From the sequence record ON528737: 64,000 bases of DNA; one strand, 5' to 3'. Each line of letters begins with the position of its first letter. The first letter of the stretch is position 1. The notes beneath the pieces were generated by a model. It was not told the origin of the DNA and searched no databases. It was given only the letters and a program-made list of their open reading frames with translations. Origin of the DNA: Shigella phage ESh27. Made by a program: the position numbers and the translations under genes. Below, in pieces: positions 3,941 through 42,440 of the stretch.

Positions 3941-4159
3941 ATGAAAACCAAAATGTTAGAAATGATTCGTGAAGCTGGTGATAAAGGTCTTATGGTTAAC
4001 ACTCGTGATGCAGACCAACGTCAAGCATTCGGTGAACTGAAAGCTAAAGGTCTAGTTAAAGCATCCTTGGGAATCGGTAACGCATTACGAGTCACTTTGA
4101 CTCCTGCTGGTAAAGCAATGTTCTTTCAACCTCTTACCAAAAAATCTCGTCGCAAATAA
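3941..4159 (+). CDS. hypothetical protein
   Basis: 72 aa; ATG after AAGAGGAAAA SD. Confidence 0.55.
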   Translation: MKTKMLEMIREAGDKGLMVNTRDADQRQAFGELKAKGLVKASLGIGNALRVTLTPAGKAMFFQPLTKKSRRK

Positions 4160-4161
4160 TT

Positions 4162-4192
4162 GTTTACTTTTGCTTTAAACATGTTATTATAG
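4162..4192 (+). promoter_or_regulatory. early-type promoter
   Basis: GTTTAC-N17-TATTAT-agacctatc. Confidence 0.5.
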
Positions 4193-4229
4193 ACCTATCG
4201 AAACGAAATGAGTAAATTTGGAGAATAAA

Positions 4230-5210
4230 ATGTTCAACGTTCAAATCAAAAAAGGTATCTATCGTAATAACGAAATCTCTGGTTCTTATGTTGCCACAAA
4301 GACATGGTTCCCGGCAAAGCTTAATCCTGAATGTTCCCACTTAGGTGACGGTAAAATTTTCGTTATGATTGATGGTTCTGAACGTGGAGTATGGGTCTTC
4401 AAATCAGACATCGTAATGGAAGGAGTTGAGACATCACCAGTTGCAGTTATTGAAAGCGCTGAAGATATGAAAACTCGTATCAACAAACGCTTTAAAGTAA
4501 TGAACATGATGACGAATGGCATTATCGATGGCAAAATTCGTTCACTCATTATTTCAGGTGCAGCAGGTATTGGTAAGACGTATTCTCTGGATAAAGCACT
4601 TAATAATGCTAATGATAATGGTTTCATCAAATACAAAAGCATTAATGGCAAAATCTCTGGTATTGGCCTTTACGAACAACTTTGGCTCAACCGTGATGCA
4701 GACAGCGTTCTCTTAATCGATGACGTTGACGTATTCTCAGATATGGATATCTTGAACCTTCTTAAAGCAGCATTAGATACTGGCGATAAACGCAAAGTTT
4801 GCTGGAGCACTGCATCATCTTATCTTGATGATAAGGGTATCGATAAAGAATTTGAGTTTGAAGGTACTATCGTTTTCATTACAAACGTTGATATCGATAA
4901 AGAGTTAGAACGCGGTTCGAAACTTGCTCCACACCTTCAAGCTTTAGTATCTCGTTCAGTGTATTTGGACCTTGGAGTACACTCTAATGAAGAGATTATG
5001 GTCCGAGTTGAAGATGTAATATTATCTACTGACATGATGCAGAAACGTGGTCTGACTGATGCTGAAACGTATAAAGCATTGTCCTGGATGAAGGCTAACA
5101 TATCTCGTCTTCGCAATGTATCATTACGTACGGCTCTTTATGTAGCAGATTTTATTTCAACTGATAAAGACGGTTGGGAGGAAATCTCCGAAGTAACTTT
5201 ACTGAAATAA
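4230..5210 (+). CDS. P-loop ATPase (AAA-like)
   Basis: 326 aa; Walker A GAAGIGKT and Walker B VLLIDDVD. Confidence 0.65.
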   Translation: MFNVQIKKGIYRNNEISGSYVATKTWFPAKLNPECSHLGDGKIFVMIDGSERGVWVFKSDIVMEGVETSPVAVIESAEDMKTRINKRFKVMNMMTNGIIDGKIRSLIISGAAGIGKTYSLDKALNNANDNGFIKYKSINGKISGIGLYEQLWLNRDADSVLLIDDVDVFSDMDILNLLKAALDTGDKRKVCWSTASSYLDDKGIDKEFEFEGTIVFITNVDIDKELERGSKLAPHLQALVSRSVYLDLGVHSNEEIMVRVEDVILSTDMMQKRGLTDAETYKALSWMKANISRLRNVSLRTALYVADFISTDKDGWEEISEVTLLK

Positions 5211-28097: not shown

Positions 28098-28733
28098 ATG
28101 AAAACTACTCCTATTACTATCGCTATTGACGCAATCATAAAACAAGCTTCTTCTTTGGCCGCTATGGCCAAAGTAATTAGTCAAAACCCTGCTCGTTATA
28201 ATGTTATTCTAGAAACACTTCGACGCCCTGGACTGAGTAATTATGAAAGTCGTGTAATTATTACAGGTGTTGGTAAGAACGCTAATATCGCAACTAAAGC
28301 TTCTGAGACATTTGCTTCACTCGGTATCCCAAGTATGTACTTGAACACCGGGCATTATTCTCACGGTGATGCAGGATTTATTGCGCCTAATGATGTGTTG
28401 ATTCATATTAGTCGTTCTGGTAAGACTGAAGAAATGATAGGTGTTGCTAAACATCTTCGTATGATTCGTCCTCAGGTTAAACAGATTCTGTTACATTGTA
28501 ACCCTGACATTCCACAAGAATACGAAGCTCTTTTTGATTATACGTTCTGTACCGGTATCGCGGTAGAAGTTGACGAGAACTCTTTAGCTCCGACTATGTC
28601 CACTACATTGTTGTTAGCGCTTATCGATACGTTTGCTATCAACCTTTCGTCTGAACGTGGATTTACCTCTAATGACTTCCTTAAGTTCCACCCTGGCGGT
28701 GCACTAGGTGCCATGTTACGAGGCGAACAATGA
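28098..28733 (+). CDS. SIS-domain sugar-phosphate isomerase (KdsD-like arabinose-5-phosphate isomerase)
   Basis: 211 aa; GVGKNANIATKASETFASLGIPS...HGDAG...ISRSGKTEE matches the KdsD/GutQ SIS-domain pattern; no CBS domain. Confidence 0.7.
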   Translation: MKTTPITIAIDAIIKQASSLAAMAKVISQNPARYNVILETLRRPGLSNYESRVIITGVGKNANIATKASETFASLGIPSMYLNTGHYSHGDAGFIAPNDVLIHISRSGKTEEMIGVAKHLRMIRPQVKQILLHCNPDIPQEYEALFDYTFCTGIAVEVDENSLAPTMSTTLLLALIDTFAINLSSERGFTSNDFLKFHPGGALGAMLRGEQ

Positions 28734-28873
28734 AAGCAATAACAATAGGACTTTTACTATTGATGCTTGTCATGACTATCTACTGGAGCTTAACGGCTCC
28801 GGTAATGATTCCAACACTTGTAATTGGATGGATTATGATTGGTCTACAGGCAAAGTATGAATGCTTTAACTAG
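28730..28873 (+). CDS. hypothetical small membrane protein
   Basis: 47 aa, two hydrophobic segments; ATGA overlap with SIS gene stop; read by eye. Confidence 0.35.
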   Translation: MKAITIGLLLLMLVMTIYWSLTAPVMIPTLVIGWIMIGLQAKYECFN

Positions 28874-28914
28874 AATAGTGTACAATACACCTACTTACCA
28901 ATGAGGACTTCAAC

Positions 28915-30600
28915 ATGAAAAAAGCTGTTATTCTTGGTGCTGGATTGGCAACTCGTTTATATCCAATTACTCACCATATTCCAAAAGTTCTTGTGAACTA
29001 TAAACAAGACACTATTCTGAGCAATTTGTATACAATTTATTCTGACCTTGGCGCAGATGAAATTATTGTAGTAGTTCATTCAAAATTTGCTGAAACCGTT
29101 CGAGCTTATTGTGAGCAAGAAGGGTTCAATGTGACTATTCGTACAGTTGATGAAGCGTATGGTTCTGCTTATGCTCTTGCTAAATTACACAAAGATTTAG
29201 ACGGCCATAACGTAGTTGTTAACTGGTGCGATATTATTCCTGATTTTGGTTCATGGTCTTGGAATGTTAACGCAATCTATGTTAAGGGTGATGAATGTCG
29301 ATATAATTTCGATGGTGAAAATATCACTAACGTAGGTTCAACAGGCGGTAATGTTGTAGGAATTTATCAGTTCAAAGACTGGGAATTCTATATGGGTTCT
29401 ACTGATGAGGAAATTCATGAATACTGCAAAGGACGTGATTTCGTAGAATTCCTTTACAGCAGCGCATTCAATAAATCAGAGCTTATGAATCTAATTGATT
29501 TAGGTGATATGCCTAAACTTGAAAAAGCTCATGAAGTTCGTGAACTTAATCGTAGTTTTAATGCAGTTGAAATTGGTGAAGAAACTGTAACTAAATTCGC
29601 ATTAACTGAACAAGGTCGAGCTCTTCAAAAAGATGAGATTTCATGGTATTTGAAAGTGAAATCAGATTCAGTCCCTCAGTTAGTTTCTGTTAATGAAAAT
29701 AACTTTGAAATGGAACGCATTAAAGGTAAGCCAGCATTTGAATATATTAAATCCAAATCAAGTCTTGCTCGTCCACAAATTGTTGATGCAATTTTAGATG
29801 CACTGAAATTCAGCACAGACATTTATTTTGTAAGTCCTGAAACTGTTCGTCGTGATTTCACTAAAGAATTCTATACGAAAGTTATTGATCGTTGTGAAAG
29901 CATTCAACCATTGATTGATTCATTTGGTAAAATCACACATGTGAACTACACTAAGATTGGACGTCTGAAGCCAATGCTGAAACAAGCTTTAGAACATCTT
30001 ATTCGTTATCATAACCGTTCTCAGGGACAGTACTCTGTTATTCATGGTGACCCAAACTTCAGTAATACTATGATTACCGATAACGGCGAAGTCAAGTTTA
30101 TCGACCCTCGTGGATATTTTGGTGAAACCAAGATTTACGGGCCAAAATTGTATGATGAAGCTAAAGTGCTTTATGCTGTTTCAGGTTATGATGAATTCAA
30201 CGCTAATCCGACCTGGGGCCAGTTTATTATTGATGAAACAACTTGTAATGTGACTATTAACATCAATCCATTAGTTTACAAATATGGAAAGATGAGTTCG
30301 TTTAACGAGTATCATCATTTGGCAGTGGCAATTATCTGGATTGCATTAGGTGGTTATTTCAAGAATAATCCACTTAAAGCGGTAGCCGCATATTATAAAG
30401 GTATGGAACTTCTAACTAAGCAATTACGTAACATGGGCCGTGTACTTCAAGATGGCTCTATTAGTTATGACGTAGCAGAACCTGTAACGGCTACTCTGAT
30501 TACAAAAAATCCTGGTAAATGGGTACTAACTGATAAAGAAACTGGTGTTTCCTATCGTCCAATCGGTGGCGATATCACTCATCAATGGGAACGAATCTAA
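28915..30600 (+). CDS. bifunctional sugar-1-phosphate nucleotidyltransferase / sugar kinase (putative)
   Basis: 561 aa; N-terminal GxGxR nucleotidyltransferase motif (AVILGAGLATRLYP...PKVLV); C-terminal APH/choline-kinase-like HGDPNFSN...FIDPRG. Confidence 0.7.
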   Translation: MKKAVILGAGLATRLYPITHHIPKVLVNYKQDTILSNLYTIYSDLGADEIIVVVHSKFAETVRAYCEQEGFNVTIRTVDEAYGSAYALAKLHKDLDGHNVVVNWCDIIPDFGSWSWNVNAIYVKGDECRYNFDGENITNVGSTGGNVVGIYQFKDWEFYMGSTDEEIHEYCKGRDFVEFLYSSAFNKSELMNLIDLGDMPKLEKAHEVRELNRSFNAVEIGEETVTKFALTEQGRALQKDEISWYLKVKSDSVPQLVSVNENNFEMERIKGKPAFEYIKSKSSLARPQIVDAILDALKFSTDIYFVSPETVRRDFTKEFYTKVIDRCESIQPLIDSFGKITHVNYTKIGRLKPMLKQALEHLIRYHNRSQGQYSVIHGDPNFSNTMITDNGEVKFIDPRGYFGETKIYGPKLYDEAKVLYAVSGYDEFNANPTWGQFIIDETTCNVTININPLVYKYGKMSSFNEYHHLAVAIIWIALGGYFKNNPLKAVAAYYKGMELLTKQLRNMGRVLQDGSISYDVAEPVTATLITKNPGKWVLTDKETGVSYRPIGGDITHQWERI

Positions 30601-32482: not shown

Positions 32483-33199
32483 ATGGGAAAACATAACACA
32501 ATGAAATATATCAAAGCCGCAGATTTTCAAACCGCATTTAAAGCAGTCAATCGTGAAATTTTAGAAAACCCGGAATTCGTAACTGATTCTCGTATTGGAC
32601 GTTGTAATGAAATTGGGTCTATGACCGTAGTTGTTGACACTCCATCATCATTCAAAATGACCGACCCACGTATTAATCGCATCTCTTATGAATATGCCGA
32701 AGACTTCTGGAAGTTTATGATTTCTGGTGGTACCAACGCAGAAGAAGCGTTTAAGGCATATCCTAATGTCGCTAAATTTATTTCTAAACCAAAATCAGAT
32801 GTTTTGCCGGCGAACTTCAACACTTTCTATGGTCCTCGCATTGCGGCCCAATTACCAGCTCTTCTCAAAGAACTTAAAGAGAAGCCTAACTCTCGAAGAG
32901 TTGTGTTCCAAATTCTAGAAAGTTCTGATCAGGCTTTGCTTGATTCAGACGAAACACTTGAATATCCATGTACTGACTCAGTGACTTATTATATTCGTGA
33001 TGGTAAGCTTTATACACACTGTCATATGCGTTCTCAGAACTGTGCTGTTGTTATGCAGTTGGATTTTTATCTCCAAGGAAAATTACTTCATTATATCGCT
33101 AACGAATGTGGTGTAGAAGTTGGTGATTATACTCATACCATGGTAAGTGCCCATGTGTTTGAACGTGATTTTGATTATGTTAAAGGATTCCTTGACTAA
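32483..33199 (+). CDS. 42: dCMP hydroxymethylase gp42 (thymidylate-synthase fold)
   Basis: 238 aa; active-site region PCTDSVTYYIRDGKLYTHCHMRSQNCAVVMQLDF parallels T4 gp42 / thymidylate synthase. Confidence 0.8.
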   Translation: MGKHNTMKYIKAADFQTAFKAVNREILENPEFVTDSRIGRCNEIGSMTVVVDTPSSFKMTDPRINRISYEYAEDFWKFMISGGTNAEEAFKAYPNVAKFISKPKSDVLPANFNTFYGPRIAAQLPALLKELKEKPNSRRVVFQILESSDQALLDSDETLEYPCTDSVTYYIRDGKLYTHCHMRSQNCAVVMQLDFYLQGKLLHYIANECGVEVGDYTHTMVSAHVFERDFDYVKGFLD

Positions 33200-34098
33200 T
33201 GGCTATTTTCCGCGTACCAATCTTGAGTATGCGGTCTTATGAAACTGGACAGTATGCTATCCTTAAGGATGGCAACTTCCAACTTCATTTGCACCGTGCT
33301 AATCCAGGCGATGTGATTACATATCCACGTAATGCATCTGATATTAAAGAATGCGAACGTCTTTTCCCGGAATTTAAGTTTGTTCCATTATGGTATAAAG
33401 ATAACGCGTATAACACTCGTAAATATTTCTGGTCTGAAAACGAATTTGTTGTTGATTCATTAATTGCTTATTATGATTGTGATTTTCTAATCACAGATAT
33501 CACTGGATATGACGGCGCTTTTGATGTAGAATTCAATTTCAATATCACTGCAGACCCTAATAAACCACGTTTTTATATTGACGAATTCTTAAAAACCGAC
33601 ATGTTGTCGGTTAATCGTTCACTTCAAACTACTGTGTTGAATGAACGTCAAAAAGAAGTGCTGGTTAACGCAGGTGCAGACGATAATAAGATTATCGTAA
33701 CGCAGAAAGTTATACGTCCTTCCATCATGCAGCGTCTTGTAGGTGATTTGGCTCCTATTCATGTAGATGGTATTTTTCATCCATTTCGAATTAGTGATCC
33801 GTGTTATCATTTTGAACAAGTGGTTGAATGTGCAATTCAATTAGGTCAACCGCTTTATATAACCGATCCAAATAATAGCTTCGACAGAAATAAGTATCCT
33901 GAAGAAGCGCTGATTCGAATTTTTAAACCAACTAAAACTGAGTACTACCAAATTCTTAAAGGACGTCCGAAGATTCAATATTTCGAAAATCCTGAAGAAG
34001 TATTCCATCCAGGTCTTGGTGAGTTCATCTACTTTAATGCTTTAATTTCTTCGCCGTATAATATACCTAAATACGAAGATGTCGTAATCGAGGAATAA
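33199..34098 (+). CDS. hypothetical protein occupying the beta-glucosyltransferase position
   Basis: 299 aa between gene 42 and uvsX; no recognisable similarity to T4 beta-gt. Confidence 0.6.
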   Translation: MAIFRVPILSMRSYETGQYAILKDGNFQLHLHRANPGDVITYPRNASDIKECERLFPEFKFVPLWYKDNAYNTRKYFWSENEFVVDSLIAYYDCDFLITDITGYDGAFDVEFNFNITADPNKPRFYIDEFLKTDMLSVNRSLQTTVLNERQKEVLVNAGADDNKIIVTQKVIRPSIMQRLVGDLAPIHVDGIFHPFRISDPCYHFEQVVECAIQLGQPLYITDPNNSFDRNKYPEEALIRIFKPTKTEYYQILKGRPKIQYFENPEEVFHPGLGEFIYFNALISSPYNIPKYEDVVIEE

Positions 34099-36263: not shown

Positions 36264-37706
36264 GTGGTAGAAATTATTTTGTCTCATCTCGTATATGACC
36301 AGGCTTATTTTTCTAAGGTCTGGCCTTATATGGATTCTGATTACTTTGAGCGTGGACCGGCAAAAAATGTCTTTAAAATTATAAAGAGCCACGTTAACGA
36401 ATATAATGCAATGCCATCCATCAATGCATTAAAGGTGGCTTTAGATAACAGTTCTTTAACTGAAGCCGAATATAAAGGAACTTCAGACCTAATTGAAAAA
36501 TTGGCTGATACTCCTGAAGACCACGAATGGTTGGTTAAAGAAACTGAGAAATATGTCCAGCAAAAAGCGATGTATAATGCCACGTCCAAAATCATTGAGA
36601 TTCAGACTAATGCCGAACTACCTCCAGAACAACGTAACAAGAAAATGCCTGACGTAGGAGCTATTCCTGATATTATGCGTCAAGCACTTTCAATTTCGTT
36701 TGATAGTTATGTTGGTCACGACTGGATGGAAGACTATGAAGCACGCTGGCTTTCTTATCTAAATAAAGCACGTAAGGTCCCGTTCAAATTAAACATTCTG
36801 AATAAAATCACCAAAGGTGGTGCAGAAACAGGTACACTGAACGTTTTAATGGCTGGTGTTAACGTTGGTAAATCTTTAGGCCTTTGTTCACTTGCCGCAG
36901 ATTATCTTCAAACAGGACATAATGTTCTTTATATTTCCATGGAAATGGCTGAAGAAGTTTGTGCTAAGCGTATAGATGCAAACATGCTTGACGTATCACT
37001 CGATGATATCGATGATGGTAACGTATCTTATGCTGAATATAAAGCCAAGATGGAAAAATGGCGTTCAAAATCCACATTAGGACGTTTAGTAGTCAAACAG
37101 TATCCTACTGGTGGAGCTAATGCTAATACATTCCGTGCATTGCTTAATGAATTGAAACTCAAGAAGAACTTTGTGCCGTCTGTAATTATAGTCGATTACT
37201 TAGGTATTTGTGGGTCTTGTCGTATCAGAGTTTACACCGAAAATAGTTACACATTAGTTAAAGCTATCGCAGAAGAACTTCGTGCATTAGCAGTAGAATC
37301 TGAAACAGTTCTATGGACTGCAGCTCAAGTAGGACGTGCAGCATGGGATGCTTCAGACATGAACATGAGTGATATCGCAGAATCAGCAGGTTTACCAGCA
37401 ACGGCAGATTTCATGTTGGCCGTAATTGAAACTGAAGAACTTGCACAAGCTGAACAACAACTTATCAAACAAATCAAATCACGATACGGTGATAAGAATA
37501 AGTGGAACAAGTTCTTGATGGGTGTACGTAAAGGCAATCAGAAATGGGTTGAGATTGAGCAAGAAGGCATGAACACACCTAACACAGTAAATGAAAACGC
37601 AGGTGCTCAGATGCGTCAGGCAGAGGTGAATCGTACGGAACGCGTAGGTAAAGCCAAAGCAACACGTGCTGACCTAGATAGCTTAGCCAATGAGTTAAAA
37701 TTTTAA
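36264..37706 (+). CDS. 41: replicative DNA helicase gp41 (DnaB-like)
   Basis: 480 aa; GTG start (MVEIILSHL...) as in T4; Walker A GVNVGKS. Confidence 0.9.
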   Translation: MVEIILSHLVYDQAYFSKVWPYMDSDYFERGPAKNVFKIIKSHVNEYNAMPSINALKVALDNSSLTEAEYKGTSDLIEKLADTPEDHEWLVKETEKYVQQKAMYNATSKIIEIQTNAELPPEQRNKKMPDVGAIPDIMRQALSISFDSYVGHDWMEDYEARWLSYLNKARKVPFKLNILNKITKGGAETGTLNVLMAGVNVGKSLGLCSLAADYLQTGHNVLYISMEMAEEVCAKRIDANMLDVSLDDIDDGNVSYAEYKAKMEKWRSKSTLGRLVVKQYPTGGANANTFRALLNELKLKKNFVPSVIIVDYLGICGSCRIRVYTENSYTLVKAIAEELRALAVESETVLWTAAQVGRAAWDASDMNMSDIAESAGLPATADFMLAVIETEELAQAEQQLIKQIKSRYGDKNKWNKFLMGVRKGNQKWVEIEQEGMNTPNTVNENAGAQMRQAEVNRTERVGKAKATRADLDSLANELKF

Positions 37707-37710
37707 TAAA

Positions 37711-37735
37711 AAGGAGACTTCGGTCTCCTTTCGGG
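37711..37735 (+). terminator. rho-independent terminator (UUCG loop)
   Basis: ggagacttcggtctcc followed by TTT. Confidence 0.55.
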
Positions 37736-37794
37736 GTTTACATCTTCCTCTAGTCATGATATGATGTACTTACACCAACCAAGAGGAAAACATT

Positions 37795-38169
37795 ATGAAT
37801 ATGTCTCAAGCAATTTTTACTGCAATCACCGAAAACACAACTGTTGAAGTAGTTTCTCCGCTGGCAACCTACGTTATTCTTGCTCCTAAAACTATTGTAT
37901 CTCGTATGGAAAACATGGGCAAACGTATCGTACAAATCGTTGGAGCCGGAAATCAAAAACTTGATTATCTGCGAACCATCAAAGCTTATGAACATTTCCA
38001 ACTAGAAAAAGGTTCTCCCATCCAGGTAGAACTCGTAAATGGTGATATCGTTCGAGCGATGTTCCATCATTTCTACGCATTGAATGACCCATCTAAAGCT
38101 GTTCGTTTAATTGCATACGACGCAAACCAAAACGAAATCAACGCAGATATATCTAAATTACGTTTTTAA
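37795..38169 (+). CDS. hypothetical protein
   Basis: 124 aa; AAGAGGAAAA SD. Confidence 0.55.
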   Translation: MNMSQAIFTAITENTTVEVVSPLATYVILAPKTIVSRMENMGKRIVQIVGAGNQKLDYLRTIKAYEHFQLEKGSPIQVELVNGDIVRAMFHHFYALNDPSKAVRLIAYDANQNEINADISKLRF

Positions 38170-38198
38170 GTTTACTTCTCCGGTAGTTGTGTTATTAT
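38170..38198 (+). promoter_or_regulatory. early-type promoter
   Basis: GTTTAC-N17-TATTAT-agacctatc. Confidence 0.5.
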
Positions 38199-38224
38199 AG
38201 ACCTATCAACTACTGGAGAACAAA

Positions 38225-38542
38225 ATGAAAACCATCGATTGTAAAGCAGAATTTAAGATTTTTTATCACGGTTCAAGTAGTTCAGCTAACATCGAAAACA
38301 TGCTTTGTCCTCCTGAAGAAACAGGAGTTCTGTCTGAAACTGGACGTAAGAAAAACTTGGATCGTGTATTCTTTACTGAAGATATCGGTTTAGCAAAGAT
38401 TTATGCAGGACGAGCAGCACGCTCTTATGGAGGTGAACCACGTCTCTATCGAGTAATTTCTCCGGTAGACGTAGTTCAAATGAATGATACTAAAGGTGCT
38501 ACAGTTTATCACGCTGAATGGGCATTTTGCGAGGAAATATGA
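38225..38542 (+). CDS. hypothetical protein with HGS...Y...E motif
   Basis: 105 aa; FYHGSSSS, SYGG and AEWAFCEE spaced like an H-Y-E ADP-ribosyltransferase triad; weak. Confidence 0.5.
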   Translation: MKTIDCKAEFKIFYHGSSSSANIENMLCPPEETGVLSETGRKKNLDRVFFTEDIGLAKIYAGRAARSYGGEPRLYRVISPVDVVQMNDTKGATVYHAEWAFCEEI

Positions 38543-38730
38543 GCAAATTAACTAAAATTACTTTTATTGGCTGGTTTAAAAGCGGTGAGATGTTCACTAA
38601 AGATATCATGTTATCAGGTGATCGTGAAGAAATCGAGTGGGTTACGGTACAACTTGCTGAAGTGAACAACGCATTAGTTAAAGCATTTGTTAATGACGAG
38701 AAAGTTTTTGAAGCAGACTTCAGAGGTTAA
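38539..38730 (+). CDS. dmd: Dmd antitoxin (inhibitor of RnlA/LsoA-type toxins)
   Basis: 63 aa; matches remembered T4 Dmd (GWFK...MFTK...AEVNxALVKAF). Confidence 0.75.
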   Translation: MSKLTKITFIGWFKSGEMFTKDIMLSGDREEIEWVTVQLAEVNNALVKAFVNDEKVFEADFRG

Positions 38731-38731
38731 T

Positions 38732-38944
38732 ATGTATTCAACTGTGTTTAAACCATCAACATACGAATTTGCATCAACTACACAATGGAAAGCTCTTATT
38801 CTGGAAGGATGGGAACTAATGATGGACTGTGAAGCATCTGAAAAGTTTCCACACGGCAAAGTGGACTTCGTTAAATTTGCTGTACGTCCGACTAAACGTC
38901 AGATTCGTCAAGAAAAACGCAAATTTCGCAAAAGTTTAAAATAG
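38732..38944 (+). CDS. hypothetical small basic protein
   Basis: 70 aa; C-terminal VRPTKRQIRQEKRK tail, paralogous to ORF 10758..10928. Confidence 0.45.
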   Translation: MYSTVFKPSTYEFASTTQWKALILEGWELMMDCEASEKFPHGKVDFVKFAVRPTKRQIRQEKRKFRKSLK

Positions 38945-38946
38945 CT

Positions 38947-38976
38947 GTTTACAAGCACCACATACTGTGTTACTAT
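38947..38976 (+). promoter_or_regulatory. early-type promoter
   Basis: GTTTAC-N18-TACTAT. Confidence 0.45.
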
Positions 38977-39004
38977 CTTTCTATCAACTACAGAGGAAAT
39001 TGAA

Positions 39005-39373
39005 ATGAAAAAATTAATCGCTTTAGCAATGGTATTTGGATTAACCGGATGTGGTGCTCATGGCTTTATCCCTAATAATGTCGGCCAATTGATTTATAAC
39101 CCGAATGTTAAACAGTACAACCAACCTAAAGTTGAAGTGGAAGACCCGGTTACTGTAGGTAATCGAATGATTCAAGCTGATGCCCATGCTCAACGTTATC
39201 GTGATTCTGATACTGTAGCATTGACAAAAGAACAACGCGTTAAAGAACATTGCTTACAGGCTACCGAAATCGCATTCATTCGCTATGTTGAAACAACTGG
39301 TAAAGAGCCTACCCAGAAACAAATCGCGAATAACTACGTCCAGTGTATTGAACGTTTAAACAAATTTAATTAA
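39005..39373 (+). CDS. hypothetical lipoprotein
   Basis: 122 aa; signal peptide with lipobox LTGC. Confidence 0.55.
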   Translation: MKKLIALAMVFGLTGCGAHGFIPNNVGQLIYNPNVKQYNQPKVEVEDPVTVGNRMIQADAHAQRYRDSDTVALTKEQRVKEHCLQATEIAFIRYVETTGKEPTQKQIANNYVQCIERLNKFN

Positions 39374-39376
39374 TTG

Positions 39377-39406
39377 GTTTACGCCAAAGTTAAAACAAGA
39401 TACTAT
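39377..39406 (+). promoter_or_regulatory. early-type promoter
   Basis: GTTTAC-N18-TACTAT. Confidence 0.4.
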
Positions 39407-39434
39407 AAACATAACAAATCAAGAGGAAATTAAC

Positions 39435-39683
39435 ATGGAATTATTCGTAGCTAGTTCAGTAGCAGTTTTAATCGCAGGTATTGGTTCAATCATCATTTAC
39501 ATGTTGCCTTGGGTAATCGCACTTATTCGTGGCACAAAAAGCACAACAGCAATCTTCTTTGTATCTTTGCTCTTTAACTGGACGATGGTTGGTTGGATTG
39601 GAACTTTAATTTGGTCTATCGTTGCCGAAAAGAAATCTGCTCAGCAGCCTCAACAAGTAATTATTATTCGCGAAAAAGAATAA
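39435..39683 (+). CDS. Imm-like superinfection immunity membrane protein
   Basis: 82 aa, two TM helices; PWVIALIRG...LLFNWTMVGWIGTLIW fits the Imm family pattern. Confidence 0.6.
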   Translation: MELFVASSVAVLIAGIGSIIIYMLPWVIALIRGTKSTTAIFFVSLLFNWTMVGWIGTLIWSIVAEKKSAQQPQQVIIIREKE

Positions 39684-39687
39684 ACTT

Positions 39688-39717
39688 GTTTACATTATAG
39701 ATGGACTATAGTATAGT
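39688..39717 (+). promoter_or_regulatory. early-type promoter within stem-loop
   Basis: GTTTAC-N18-TATAGT; ggacta/tagtcc inverted repeat. Confidence 0.5.
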
Positions 39718-39746
39718 AGTCCTATCAAATCAACTAAGGAGTTAAA

Positions 39747-40040
39747 ATGAAAAAGTTATCATTGGCAGCAATCTTACTTGCAGTATCGTGTGCACCGGCT
39801 CCAGTTACAGCAGGTTATGATAAAGACCTCTGTGAGTGGTCAATGACTGCAAATCAAGAAGATGTTGAACAACAAATCTTCTCTGATATCATGAACATCA
39901 CTAAACGAGACCGTCCTAATATGGTTAATAAAGTTGTTGAACAACTTAAGTCTGGCGGTATCATGCAGTACAACTATGTTTTGTATTGTGACCCTAATTT
40001 CGATAACAAAGATATCATAACCGAAATCACAGGTGAATAA
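39747..40040 (+). CDS. sp: Spackle (periplasmic superinfection exclusion protein)
   Basis: 97 aa with signal peptide; AGYDKDLCEWSMTA...QYNYVLYCD matches remembered T4 Sp. Confidence 0.7.
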   Translation: MKKLSLAAILLAVSCAPAPVTAGYDKDLCEWSMTANQEDVEQQIFSDIMNITKRDRPNMVNKVVEQLKSGGIMQYNYVLYCDPNFDNKDIITEITGE

Positions 40041-40041
40041 T

Positions 40042-40692
40042 ATGATTTATTATATGCACAAAAACGCGCCATTTAAATATGGTAAATTTCCTAATGCACA
40101 ATGTTATAATATAACGCCGAATGAAAATAATAACGGATACCATATTGGTGTAATTTTTGTAATTGTTAAAGATAACGAAATCGTTGCCTGGGCAGATTTT
40201 AAAGGTACAACGTATGACGTTAATCCGGTTCCGTTCACATATTATAATTTAATGGATTTGGCATACGACTATAATTGGTTTACTCATGATACTCTGGCAC
40301 ATGTTGAAGGCGTAGGATTTGACATCTCTTATTCTAGTTATTCATTATGTCCTATGAGCCGAGCTCACGGTAAAGATGTATCATATCTTTCAATTCGGAA
40401 ACGTGTAAACTTCAAACGTAGTACAGAGTATGTTGGTGGACTCTTTGTTAAAGATAATAAAATAACCCGTATTAGTTATCCTTTAAGTGTAGGTCAAAAA
40501 GATGTTGATGTTGATTTAGACTTAACTGAAAATAACATTAATCACATTGCTTCTGTATATTTTGATATCGATGAAAAAATTGTAGTGTGTGGATACGAAT
40601 TACCACCTGAAGAAAAGGCTGAAGCAATTGAAGTCGAATTAGAAATTTCTGTTGATGACCAAATATTTAATGCATTTATGAATCGAGGTTAA
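40042..40692 (+). CDS. hypothetical protein
   Basis: 216 aa; start at ATG 2 nt after sp stop. Confidence 0.55.
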   Translation: MIYYMHKNAPFKYGKFPNAQCYNITPNENNNGYHIGVIFVIVKDNEIVAWADFKGTTYDVNPVPFTYYNLMDLAYDYNWFTHDTLAHVEGVGFDISYSSYSLCPMSRAHGKDVSYLSIRKRVNFKRSTEYVGGLFVKDNKITRISYPLSVGQKDVDVDLDLTENNINHIASVYFDIDEKIVVCGYELPPEEKAEAIEVELEISVDDQIFNAFMNRG

Positions 40693-40693
40693 A

Positions 40694-40891
40694 ATGACTA
40701 CTGCAATTTGCACTGGTTCTAAAATTAGTGTTTTTACAAGTTTTGAAGATTATGAAGTTGTTTCAAAACACCAATGCCATATTAGCGTAAAAGCTAATGA
40801 TGGTGTAATTTGGAATATTCCACACTATGAAGACACTACATATGAAGTCACAGATGCGAACGGTGATAAAGCGATCTTTGTGATTGATTAA
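40694..40891 (+). CDS. hypothetical protein
   Basis: 65 aa. Confidence 0.45.
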   Translation: MTTAICTGSKISVFTSFEDYEVVSKHQCHISVKANDGVIWNIPHYEDTTYEVTDANGDKAIFVID

Positions 40892-41417: not shown

Positions 41418-42440
41418 ATGGCTGAATGGATAGATAATGAATTTGCTTATCGTGCGTTTTCTCACCTCCCTCGTTTTAGACAAATCAATAATTCAAGCAC
41501 ATTTAAATTAACATTTCGTTGTCCAGTTTGTGGCGACTCTCAGACAGATGCAATGAAAGCTCGCGGATGGTATTATGGCGGTACTCCAGGTAATGTGCAT
41601 TGCTATAACTGCCAATATCATAATACGATTTCCGGATACTTAAAAGAGTATGATGAAGAGCTTTATCGCGAATATCTAATGGAAGTACGTAAAGAAAAAG
41701 CTAGAATGGAACCAAAGATTGAAAAGGTTCCTGAACATAAACCAGAACCGGAGAAAAAGACTATAAATTCTTTGCCGTCTTGTTCTCGTCTGGACAAGTT
41801 GCCTGAAGAGCATCCTATTGTGAAATATGTTAAGTCTCGTTGTATTCCTAAAGAATCGTGGAACAGATTATGGTTCACATTAGAATGGCCTAAATTGGTT
41901 AACAAGATTCAACCTGGTACGTATAAGAAAGAGATTCCTGAACCGCGTTTAGTGATACCTATTTTTAATAAAGACGGGAAGGCTGAGTCATTTCAAGGAC
42001 GTGCACTTCGCAAAGATGCTCCTCAAAAATATATCACTATTAAAGCTTTTGAATCTGCAACAAAAATTTATGGTGTTGAACGTGTTAAGGAAGGAGACGT
42101 CTGGGTAATGGAAGGCCCTATTGATAGTTTATTCATACCCAATGCAATCGCTATTACAGGCGGCTCAATAGATTTAGATGTGGTACCATTTAAAGAACGT
42201 CGGGTATGGGTAATGGATAATGAACCTAGGCATCCGGATACTATAGCTCGTATGAAGCGATTAGTAGATGCAGGCGAACGTGTTATGTTCTGGGATAGAG
42301 CTCCATGGAGATCAAAGGATGTGAATGATATGGTAATGAAAGAAAATGCAACACCACAAGAAATTTTAGAATATATGAAACAGAATATTTCAAGTGGGTT
42401 GCATGCTAAAATGAGATTATCTCGTTATTCGAAGATTTAA
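41418..42440 (+). CDS. 61: DNA primase gp61
   Basis: 340 aa; N-terminal zinc ribbon CPVCGDS...CYNC and TOPRIM region. Confidence 0.85.
   Translation: MAEWIDNEFAYRAFSHLPRFRQINNSSTFKLTFRCPVCGDSQTDAMKARGWYYGGTPGNVHCYNCQYHNTISGYLKEYDEELYREYLMEVRKEKARMEPKIEKVPEHKPEPEKKTINSLPSCSRLDKLPEEHPIVKYVKSRCIPKESWNRLWFTLEWPKLVNKIQPGTYKKEIPEPRLVIPIFNKDGKAESFQGRALRKDAPQKYITIKAFESATKIYGVERVKEGDVWVMEGPIDSLFIPNAIAITGGSIDLDVVPFKERRVWVMDNEPRHPDTIARMKRLVDAGERVMFWDRAPWRSKDVNDMVMKENATPQEILEYMKQNISSGLHAKMRLSRYSKI

Follow-up and report, generated by a model that had tools for sequence, protein, structure and literature searches.

The position of the phage exclusion genes imm and sp was analysed in a 64,000-nucleotide (nt) stretch of Shigella phage ESh27 (sequence record ON528737; hereafter the window), a segment of a T4-type phage genome in which genes were assigned from a listing of open reading frames (ORFs) and Pfam matches. 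In this genome the superinfection-immunity gene imm and its upstream partner imm.1, which adjoin gene 43 in T4, lie directly 5′ of sp, the gene for Spackle, in the early region between genes 41 and 61. Judged by gene order, the location of imm.1-imm beside sp is a derived state relative to every other Tevenvirinae genus examined and is fixed in the genus Mosigvirus, the two genes having moved together without change of order or orientation. The interval as a whole is probably the RB69-type form of the early region that T4 has between genes 41 and 61, with small, individually promoted early genes, each most likely working like its T4 or RB69 ortholog. The arrangement itself is already known, having been annotated gene by gene since the deposition of RB69, and is common to about 153 Mosigvirus genomes. 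The genes of the row, all on the + strand, are as follows (aa, amino acids).

36264-37706, +, gene 41, helicase (ORF listing and Pfam)
37795-38169, +, ORF041c (ORF listing)
38225-38542, +, ORF040c, 105 aa, neighbour gene whose stop codon overlaps the dmd start (ATGA)
38539-38730, +, dmd, 63 aa, predicted antitoxin-mimic inhibitor of the RnlA/LsoA toxins (PF17587)
38732-38944, +, tifA (61.4), 70 aa, ToxN toxin inhibitor (PF23945/DUF7279)
39005-39373, +, imm.1, 122 aa, predicted lipoprotein, directly 5′ of imm (PF17578/DUF5481)
39435-39683, +, imm, 82 aa, predicted inner-membrane superinfection-immunity protein (PF14373)
39747-40040, +, sp, 97 aa, predicted periplasmic Spackle, gp5 tail lysozyme inhibitor (PF25676)
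40054-40692, +, adfA (61.2), 212 aa, anti-DarT factor A (PF23813)
41418-42440, +, gene 61, primase (ORF listing and Pfam)

Dmd, TifA, Imm.1, Imm, Spackle and AdfA each scored above their own Pfam cut-off and PHROG matches agreed with the Pfam assignments of the region's genes, while NCBIfam gave no informative match for the nine proteins searched. An earlier reading of the letters alone (the original prediction) had proposed that dmd, a lipoprotein gene, an Imm-family gene and the Spackle gene lie within 1.5 kb; all four were found on the + strand where it had placed them, the start of dmd and the stop of sp delimiting exactly its span of 38539-40040. A fifth gene in this interval, tifA/61.4, had been overlooked, and the lipoprotein is the Imm.1 ortholog, which had not been recognised as such.

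Identity and derived position of imm.1-imm

By alignment, the Imm-like ORF is a true ortholog of T4 Imm. It matched PF14373 with 56.9 bits (cut-off 27.9, E 1.8e-15), and a BLASTP alignment with T4 Imm, as had been proposed to check the family assignment, gave a full-length match with 64% identity (residues 1-82 vs 1-83, E 2e-38), placing the protein in the Imm family. The C-terminal QVIIIREKE is the same in both proteins, and Kyte-Doolittle windows of at least 1.6 covered residues 1-34 and 40-59, giving two hydrophobic segments as in T4 Imm. PF14373 is a broad family with members in unrelated Burkholderia, Ralstonia and Vibrio phages, so that the ORF might in principle be an ordinary membrane protein of this family, a paralog or moron, rather than the functional counterpart of T4 Imm. 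This is very improbable given the 64% identity over all 82 residues, the equal length class and the identical C-terminus, the presence of an Imm.1 ortholog ahead of imm as in T4, the lack of any other PF14373-like sequence in genomes that carry this Imm, and the identity of at most 44% shown by PF14373 members outside the T-even phages. Mere family membership was rejected on the T4 Imm alignment together with the single copy of the gene: imm occupied 1040 places in 1040 records, and no genome among these 1040 records contained two copies.

Imm.1 matched PF17578/DUF5481 with 38.9 bits (cut-off 27, E 1.2e-9) and T4 Imm.1 with 33% identity over its full length (BLASTP, E 3e-20), and contains a lipobox, LTGC, at residues 13-16 where T4 Imm.1 has LAGC. 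Its gene is directly upstream of imm in both the T4 and RB69 annotations and was detectable in Mosigvirus and Tequatrovirus only; Imm.1 is thus viewed here as a predicted lipoprotein that travels with imm.

Sp gave 144.6 bits with PF25676 (cut-off 27, E 1.5e-42) and 67% identity to T4 Sp over the full length (BLASTP), and matched the T4 Spackle structures 6x6o (E 1e-39) and 7cn6 (E 8e-34) in the Protein Data Bank (PDB). T4 Spackle has an export signal, a mature start at Gly23 and a Cys29-Cys81 disulfide (PMC7677548); correspondingly, the N-terminus of the window protein is hydrophobic over residues 4-24 (export signal), the motif ...VTA|GYDKD with mature start Gly23 is conserved, and C29 and C81 were invariant across seven homologs. 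Imm and Sp constitute two envelope-level blocks against secondary phages (PMC7677548, PMC6832632), and the interaction between Spackle and gp5 has been described (PMC7677548). By analogy with their orthologs, Imm in the inner membrane would keep the DNA of secondary T-even phages out of the cytoplasm and Spackle in the periplasm would bind the gp5 tail-lysozyme domain of the incoming phage.

The gene order in T4 is 43-imm.1-imm-42-βgt-segA-uvsX-40-41-dmd-61.4-sp-61.2-61.1-61, and the original prediction was therefore correct in placing T4 imm between genes 42 and 43 (43-imm.1-imm-42). In T4, Gaprivervirus RZ, the Dhaka-like phage fDHCT2 and Jiaodavirus JD18, imm directly follows gene 43, and it is also placed after gene 43 in Serratia phage 4S (43-orf152-imm-isomerase), as confirmed by local tblastn. 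The 41-61 interval is the location of sp in T4, Dhakavirus JS10, Jiaodavirus KP179 and Winklervirus X20; in JS10 the order is 41-ORF040c-dmd-61.4-sp, with no gene between 61.4 and sp. Since imm is next to gene 43 and sp is at 41-61 in the other genera, sp appears to have stayed in place and imm.1-imm to have reached a derived position. T4 shares with the window the order dmd-tifA-...-sp-adfA and the order imm.1 to imm, with six full-length orthologs at 33-68% identity, but lacks ORF041c and ORF040c. Its imm.1-imm pair is about 6 kb away, adjoining gene 43, with only 11 nt separating the two genes, whereas in the window the pair is located between tifA and sp and a promoter motif lies between imm.1 and imm. 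The suggestion that the exclusion functions had been relocated thus holds for imm.1-imm, whereas dmd, tifA, sp and adfA are placed as in T4 and Dhakavirus.

This was further examined with a joined Imm+Sp tblastn query, whose two halves matched at a single site in 157 records; the examples listed were all Mosigvirus, a few of the records not being individually identified. This number is consistent with the approximately 153 records in which Imm is at least 95% identical. Elsewhere the two halves were in two separate places or one half only was found, and there was one weaker joined match, in Morganella phage MP1 (74% coverage).

Within Mosigvirus the arrangement is strongly conserved. A megablast search with 38200-40700 returned 489 phage records, approximately 155 of them at 95-99% identity over the whole query, and the recurrence of the same 2.5 kb in so many records indicates that the gene cluster is no chance pattern. 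RB69 showed 97.8% DNA identity over 2.5 kb, and its record (NC_004928/AY303349) gives the order 41, ORF041c, ORF040c, dmd, 61.4, imm.1, imm, sp, 61.2, with the genes RB69p039-p034 sharing gene order, spacing and orientation with the window. The window nevertheless comes from a close relative and not from RB69 itself. Its Imm, Sp and TifA match their RB69 counterparts at 100% identity, Imm.1 at 99% and Dmd at 97% (two substitutions); its AdfA carries six substitutions relative to RB69, including R164H. The synonymous/non-synonymous codon differences relative to RB69 (imm 2/0, sp 2/0, tifA 1/0 and imm.1 10/1) are nearly all synonymous, which points to purifying selection on maintained genes. No paper explicitly discussing the relocation of imm was found in the literature, and imm, sp and dmd are not mentioned in the comparison of five T4-like genomes by Nolan et al. 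2006. The records of RB69 and about 150 relatives nevertheless already contain the genes, their functions and their exact arrangement, so that the cluster carries little weight as a discovery.

The former imm locus and the sugar island

The region following gene 43 was analysed for traces of imm. The features concerned are as follows.

28098-28733, +, SIS-domain arabinose-5-phosphate isomerase, in the slot after gene 43, exactly the place of imm(.1) in other genera
28730-28873, +, 47-aa hydrophobic small ORF, phrog_3610 (E 1.9e-22), sequence MKAITIGLLLLMLVMTIYWSLTAPVMIPTLVIGWIMIGLQAKYECFN
28915-30600, +, nucleotidyltransferase, 561 aa, a single ORF; RB69 annotates two (053c/052c)
33199-34098, +, 299-aa ORF with no Pfam match; RB69 counterpart p046:47, there two ORFs (047c/046c)

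The 153-nt T4 “imm-42 intercistronic” sequence aligned with window positions 28734-28914, the region of RB69 ORF054c, annotated as “similar to T4 42-imm intercistronic region”. A hydrophobic ORF of 47-48 aa is conserved there in T4, Gaprivervirus RZ (gp076) and the window. Through the sequence ATGA, the start codon of this ORF overlaps the stop codon of imm in T4 and RZ and that of the isomerase gene in the window; this exchange of overlap partners puts the isomerase gene in the exact slot expected for imm(.1). From these alignments the phrog_3610 small ORF is a footprint of the former imm locus, and the derived polarity of the Mosigvirus position of imm is accompanied by a clear trace at the old site. 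The T4 RefSeq record has no annotation for this small ORF, and RB69 ORF054c is annotated too short, at 36 aa.

The interval from gene 43 to uvsX encodes the isomerase, the 561-aa nucleotidyltransferase, a U32-like protein, a ThyA-like enzyme, the 299-aa ORF and a kinase. This island corresponds to the RB69 cytosine-arabinosylation cluster (5-hydroxycytosine arabinosylation; PMC6024577, PMC13326640); the RB69 arabinosylation paper describes the island and does not mention the absence of imm. Displacement of imm by the sugar island was considered and rejected, as Serratia phage 4S (43-orf152-imm-isomerase-nucleotidyltransferase-…-42-like) and fDHCT2 (43-imm-smallORF-orf166-nucleotidyltransferase-…-42-like) carry a homologous island with imm still by gene 43. 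The statement that the locus carries the sugar island instead of imm is therefore true as a description of this genome but does not extend to a forced replacement, and the place next to gene 43 can hold both a DNA-modification island and imm. The two ORF pairs split in RB69 (053c/052c and 047c/046c) are single ORFs in the window. The 053c/052c split had been suspected to be a sequencing artefact (PMC6024577), which the single-ORF nucleotidyltransferase found here supports, and RB69p046:47 has been listed as arabinosyltransferase 1 and treated as one protein (PMC13326640).

Early promoters, possible route of the move and the imm-sp pairing

The whole window was scanned with the T4-type early-promoter pattern GTTTAC-N17-19-TAYWRT, giving 16 sites, all on the + strand, against 0.46 expected. 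Four of these are within 38170-39717:

38170..38198, +, early-promoter motif GTTTAC-N17-TATTAT, 5′ of ORF040c-dmd-tifA
38947..38976, +, early-promoter motif, left junction of the imm.1-imm cassette
39377..39406, +, early-promoter motif between imm.1 and imm
39688..39717, +, early-promoter motif, right junction, 5′ of sp

Shine-Dalgarno sequences are present about 8 nt 5′ of the ATG of ORF040c, imm.1, imm and sp. The genes imm.1, imm and sp are separated by 60-63 nt spacers and each has its own early-promoter motif, the only tightly packed pairs being ORF040c-dmd (ATGA overlap) and dmd-tifA (1 nt apart). The separate promoters and spacers suggest that the row is not an operon and, on these sequence features, the cluster is not a co-transcribed module. 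Mechanistically, the genes are probably independent of one another. The proposal that the exclusion genes had been gathered into one module was accordingly not borne out, both because of the separate promoter motifs and because Dmd, TifA and AdfA have anti-toxin and not exclusion functions.

The move of imm.1-imm may have occurred by recombination between early-promoter/5′ untranslated region cassettes of about 60 nt, in the manner of the “mini-circle” shuffling described for PeSL elements, in which recombination between cassettes excises and re-inserts small early genes via mini-circles (PMC2839356, Arbiol et al. 2010). The copy adjoining gene 43 would have been lost after, or coupled to, the insertion beside sp. 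A T4/PST-type consensus, TTTACW-N17-TAYWAT, has been given for PeSL cassettes (PMC4122927, Comeau et al. 2014) and is matched by the window motif, and an alignment of the ~60-nt promoter cassettes from several loci and phages contained 12 invariant columns, which would provide shared sequence sufficient for homologous exchange. As in PeSL shuffling, the window has small non-essential early genes flanked by early-promoter cassettes in a plastic region; it differs in that the stem-loop/terminator half of the element is absent at the three imm junctions, cassette mobility being proposed here from sequence. The sole full PeSL-like element of the interval is at 37711-37765 (+), directly 3′ of gene 41, and consists of the hairpin AAGGAGAC-TTCG-GTCTCCTT followed by TTTACA-N17-TATGAT. 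A search for direct and inverted repeats bracketing imm.1-imm yielded nothing beyond the D2/D11 similarity, which derives from the promoters, and short matches expected by chance.

Several observations weigh against this account of the region. The terminator scan gave no terminator-like hairpin at the three imm junctions or between the genes, no GTTTAC-type promoter motif was present in the T4 imm-42 spacer, and the junction promoters could not be assigned to a donor locus by pairwise or MAFFT alignment, all cassettes being alike and conforming to one consensus. The functions given for Imm, Imm.1, Sp and Dmd are, moreover, putative, being transferred from orthologs. Furthermore, the region is a gene-by-gene mosaic, for which a simple intragenomic jump would not be the sole path: gp40, gp41 (86%), gp61, TifA (57%), AdfA, Imm (64%) and Imm.1 have their closest counterparts in T4, whereas those of ORF040c (90%), Dmd (67%), Sp (73%), orf65, gp43 (84%) and the 42-like gene are in Dhaka-like phages. 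Within the 41-61 interval, Dhakavirus JS10 provides the closest counterparts of ORF040c, dmd, sp and orf65.

This mosaicism leaves room for a replacement of the 43-to-42 segment of a T4-type backbone by that of a Dhakavirus-like or 4S-like phage with an arabinosylation island, the T4-type imm.1-imm surviving only through a copy inserted, earlier or at that time, beside sp; the inserted pair may then stem from a co-infecting Tequatrovirus-like phage and be a xenolog. Such a replacement is considered possible but is not the favoured explanation. It would fit the identities of gp43 (84%) and the 42-like gene (79%) to fDHCT2, compared with 62% and 25% to T4, the opposite bias of Imm (64% to T4 and only 50% to fDHCT2), the restriction of Imm.1 to Tequatrovirus and Mosigvirus, and the likewise T4-closest flanking tifA, adfA, gp41 and gp61. 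However, the donor's own imm, which follows gene 43 in Dhaka-like phages, would also need to have been lost, with the isomerase gene in its place, and no genome with two imm genes was present in the 1040 records. A jump and a segment replacement end in the same arrangement, and the present data do not separate them. A different kind of explanation concerns why the genes are adjacent and not how they came together, namely that the imm-sp adjacency is a selected functional module in which two successive steps of secondary infection are blocked, imm and sp being kept together for co-inheritance or co-transfer and possibly for physical cooperation at the envelope. Its main support comes from a second occurrence of the imm to sp pair, in a different neighbourhood, in Gualtarvirus (MP1, Rgz1, PSTRCR_127/121) and Providencia phage PSTCR6:

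KX078569 46414-46847, MP1 imm-sp pair, gp080A-gp0080, PF14373 then PF25676, same strand
4001-4467 of the analysed locus, Providencia PSTCR6 imm-sp pair, PF14373 then PF25676

As in the window, these phages have a PF14373 Imm gene and, immediately 3′ of it on the same strand, a PF25676 Spackle gene. The two MP1 genes are translationally coupled through an ATGA overlap of imm stop and sp start, and they follow tk and rI; neither PF14373 nor PF25676 is represented in the MP1 slots after gene 43 and between genes 41 and 61. The slot after gene 43 of MP1 holds a lipoprotein (gp033) and a 70-aa protein with a single transmembrane segment (gp032). The Gualtarvirus/Providencia pairs differ from the window in lying in the tk-rI neighbourhood and not at 41-61 and in lacking an upstream imm.1, and their proteins share only 31-44% identity with those of the window, which argues for an independent arrangement. 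The Gualtarvirus-type pair is thus apparently independent of the Mosigvirus one and mildly favours selection for clustering, as does the low frequency with which imm would have landed by sp by chance, estimated by us as a few percent per event from the approximately 16 early-promoter sites per 64 kb. On the other hand, each gene in the window has a separate promoter motif and the 60-63 nt spacers provide no coupling; most genera, T4 included, keep imm and sp about 6 kb apart; and the 41-61 interval is an insertion hotspot in which the window has ORF041c, ORF040c and orf65 as further additions to the T4 gene set. The adjacency is found in two lineages only and the comparison was post hoc. A third imm-sp lineage was not found among 22 sp loci retrieved from IMG/VR with an Sp profile, Imm being within 3 kb only at Mosigvirus-type loci and MP1. 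Taken together, a selected imm-sp module is a tentative and rather unlikely interpretation. Similarly doubtful is a convergently selected “superinfection-exclusion supergene”, which would have arisen at least twice (in Mosigvirus through the move of imm.1-imm to sp, in Gualtarvirus/PSTCR6 as a translationally coupled imm-sp pair near rI), the two envelope-level blocks being inherited and horizontally transferred as one promoter-bounded cassette. The independent pairing of imm with sp in a second lineage could nonetheless guide a test of exclusion-gene clustering.

Neighbouring anti-toxin genes and ORF040c

In addition to the two exclusion genes, the interval contains three genes whose products counter host toxin-antitoxin systems, with Dmd directed against RnlA/LsoA, TifA against ToxN and AdfA against DarT (PMC9391042, PMC11825919). 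Dmd matched PF17587 with 74.3 bits (cut-off 27, E 1e-20) and the PDB entries 5i8j (E 5e-38) and 5hy3_B (E 1e-17). The proposed alignments with T4 Dmd and T4 Sp both gave full-length matches, with 54% identity for Dmd (BLASTP) and the 67% given above for Sp. The position of the gene (3′ of gene 41 and 5′ of 61.4) and the size of about 60 aa are those of Dmd, which by analogy would bind and neutralise the RnlA/LsoA RNase toxins. TifA, encoded by the gene adjoining dmd, gave 71.7 bits with PF23945/DUF7279 (cut-off 24.5, E 4.5e-20) and 57% identity to T4 gp61.4 over the full length (BLASTP). RB69 TifA has been shown experimentally to inhibit ToxN (PMC9391042), and the window protein would likewise neutralise ToxN.

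AdfA, which would bind DarT, matched PF23813 with 397.7 bits (E 1.3e-119) and T4 gp61.2 with 68% identity. Residue 164 is His in the window and Arg in RB69, five further residues also differing from RB69. R164H is an escape substitution with which RB69 AdfA binds and neutralises DarT1 (PMC11825919), and the window AdfA is probably, from its residue at this position, a naturally active (DarT1-neutralising) allele. For annotation, the interval serves as a compact catalogue of early conflict genes, covering anti-RnlA/LsoA, anti-ToxIN and anti-DarT functions and two exclusion proteins.

Translational coupling links ORF040c to dmd. Its family is uncharacterised and very conserved, with members at 64-100% identity (and one, in a Vibrio phage, at 34%) in 609 phage records, from T4-like phages of Escherichia, Klebsiella, Aeromonas and Acinetobacter; T4 itself lacks it. 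Residues H15-G16, Y60 and E103 were invariant. A PDB sequence search gave no match for ORF040c, and fold comparison alone was informative: an AlphaFold model (pLDDT 83.5) gave a predicted minimal ADP-ribosyltransferase fold. This gene for a putative mini ADP-ribosyltransferase-fold protein is a more promising lead than the imm-sp cluster.

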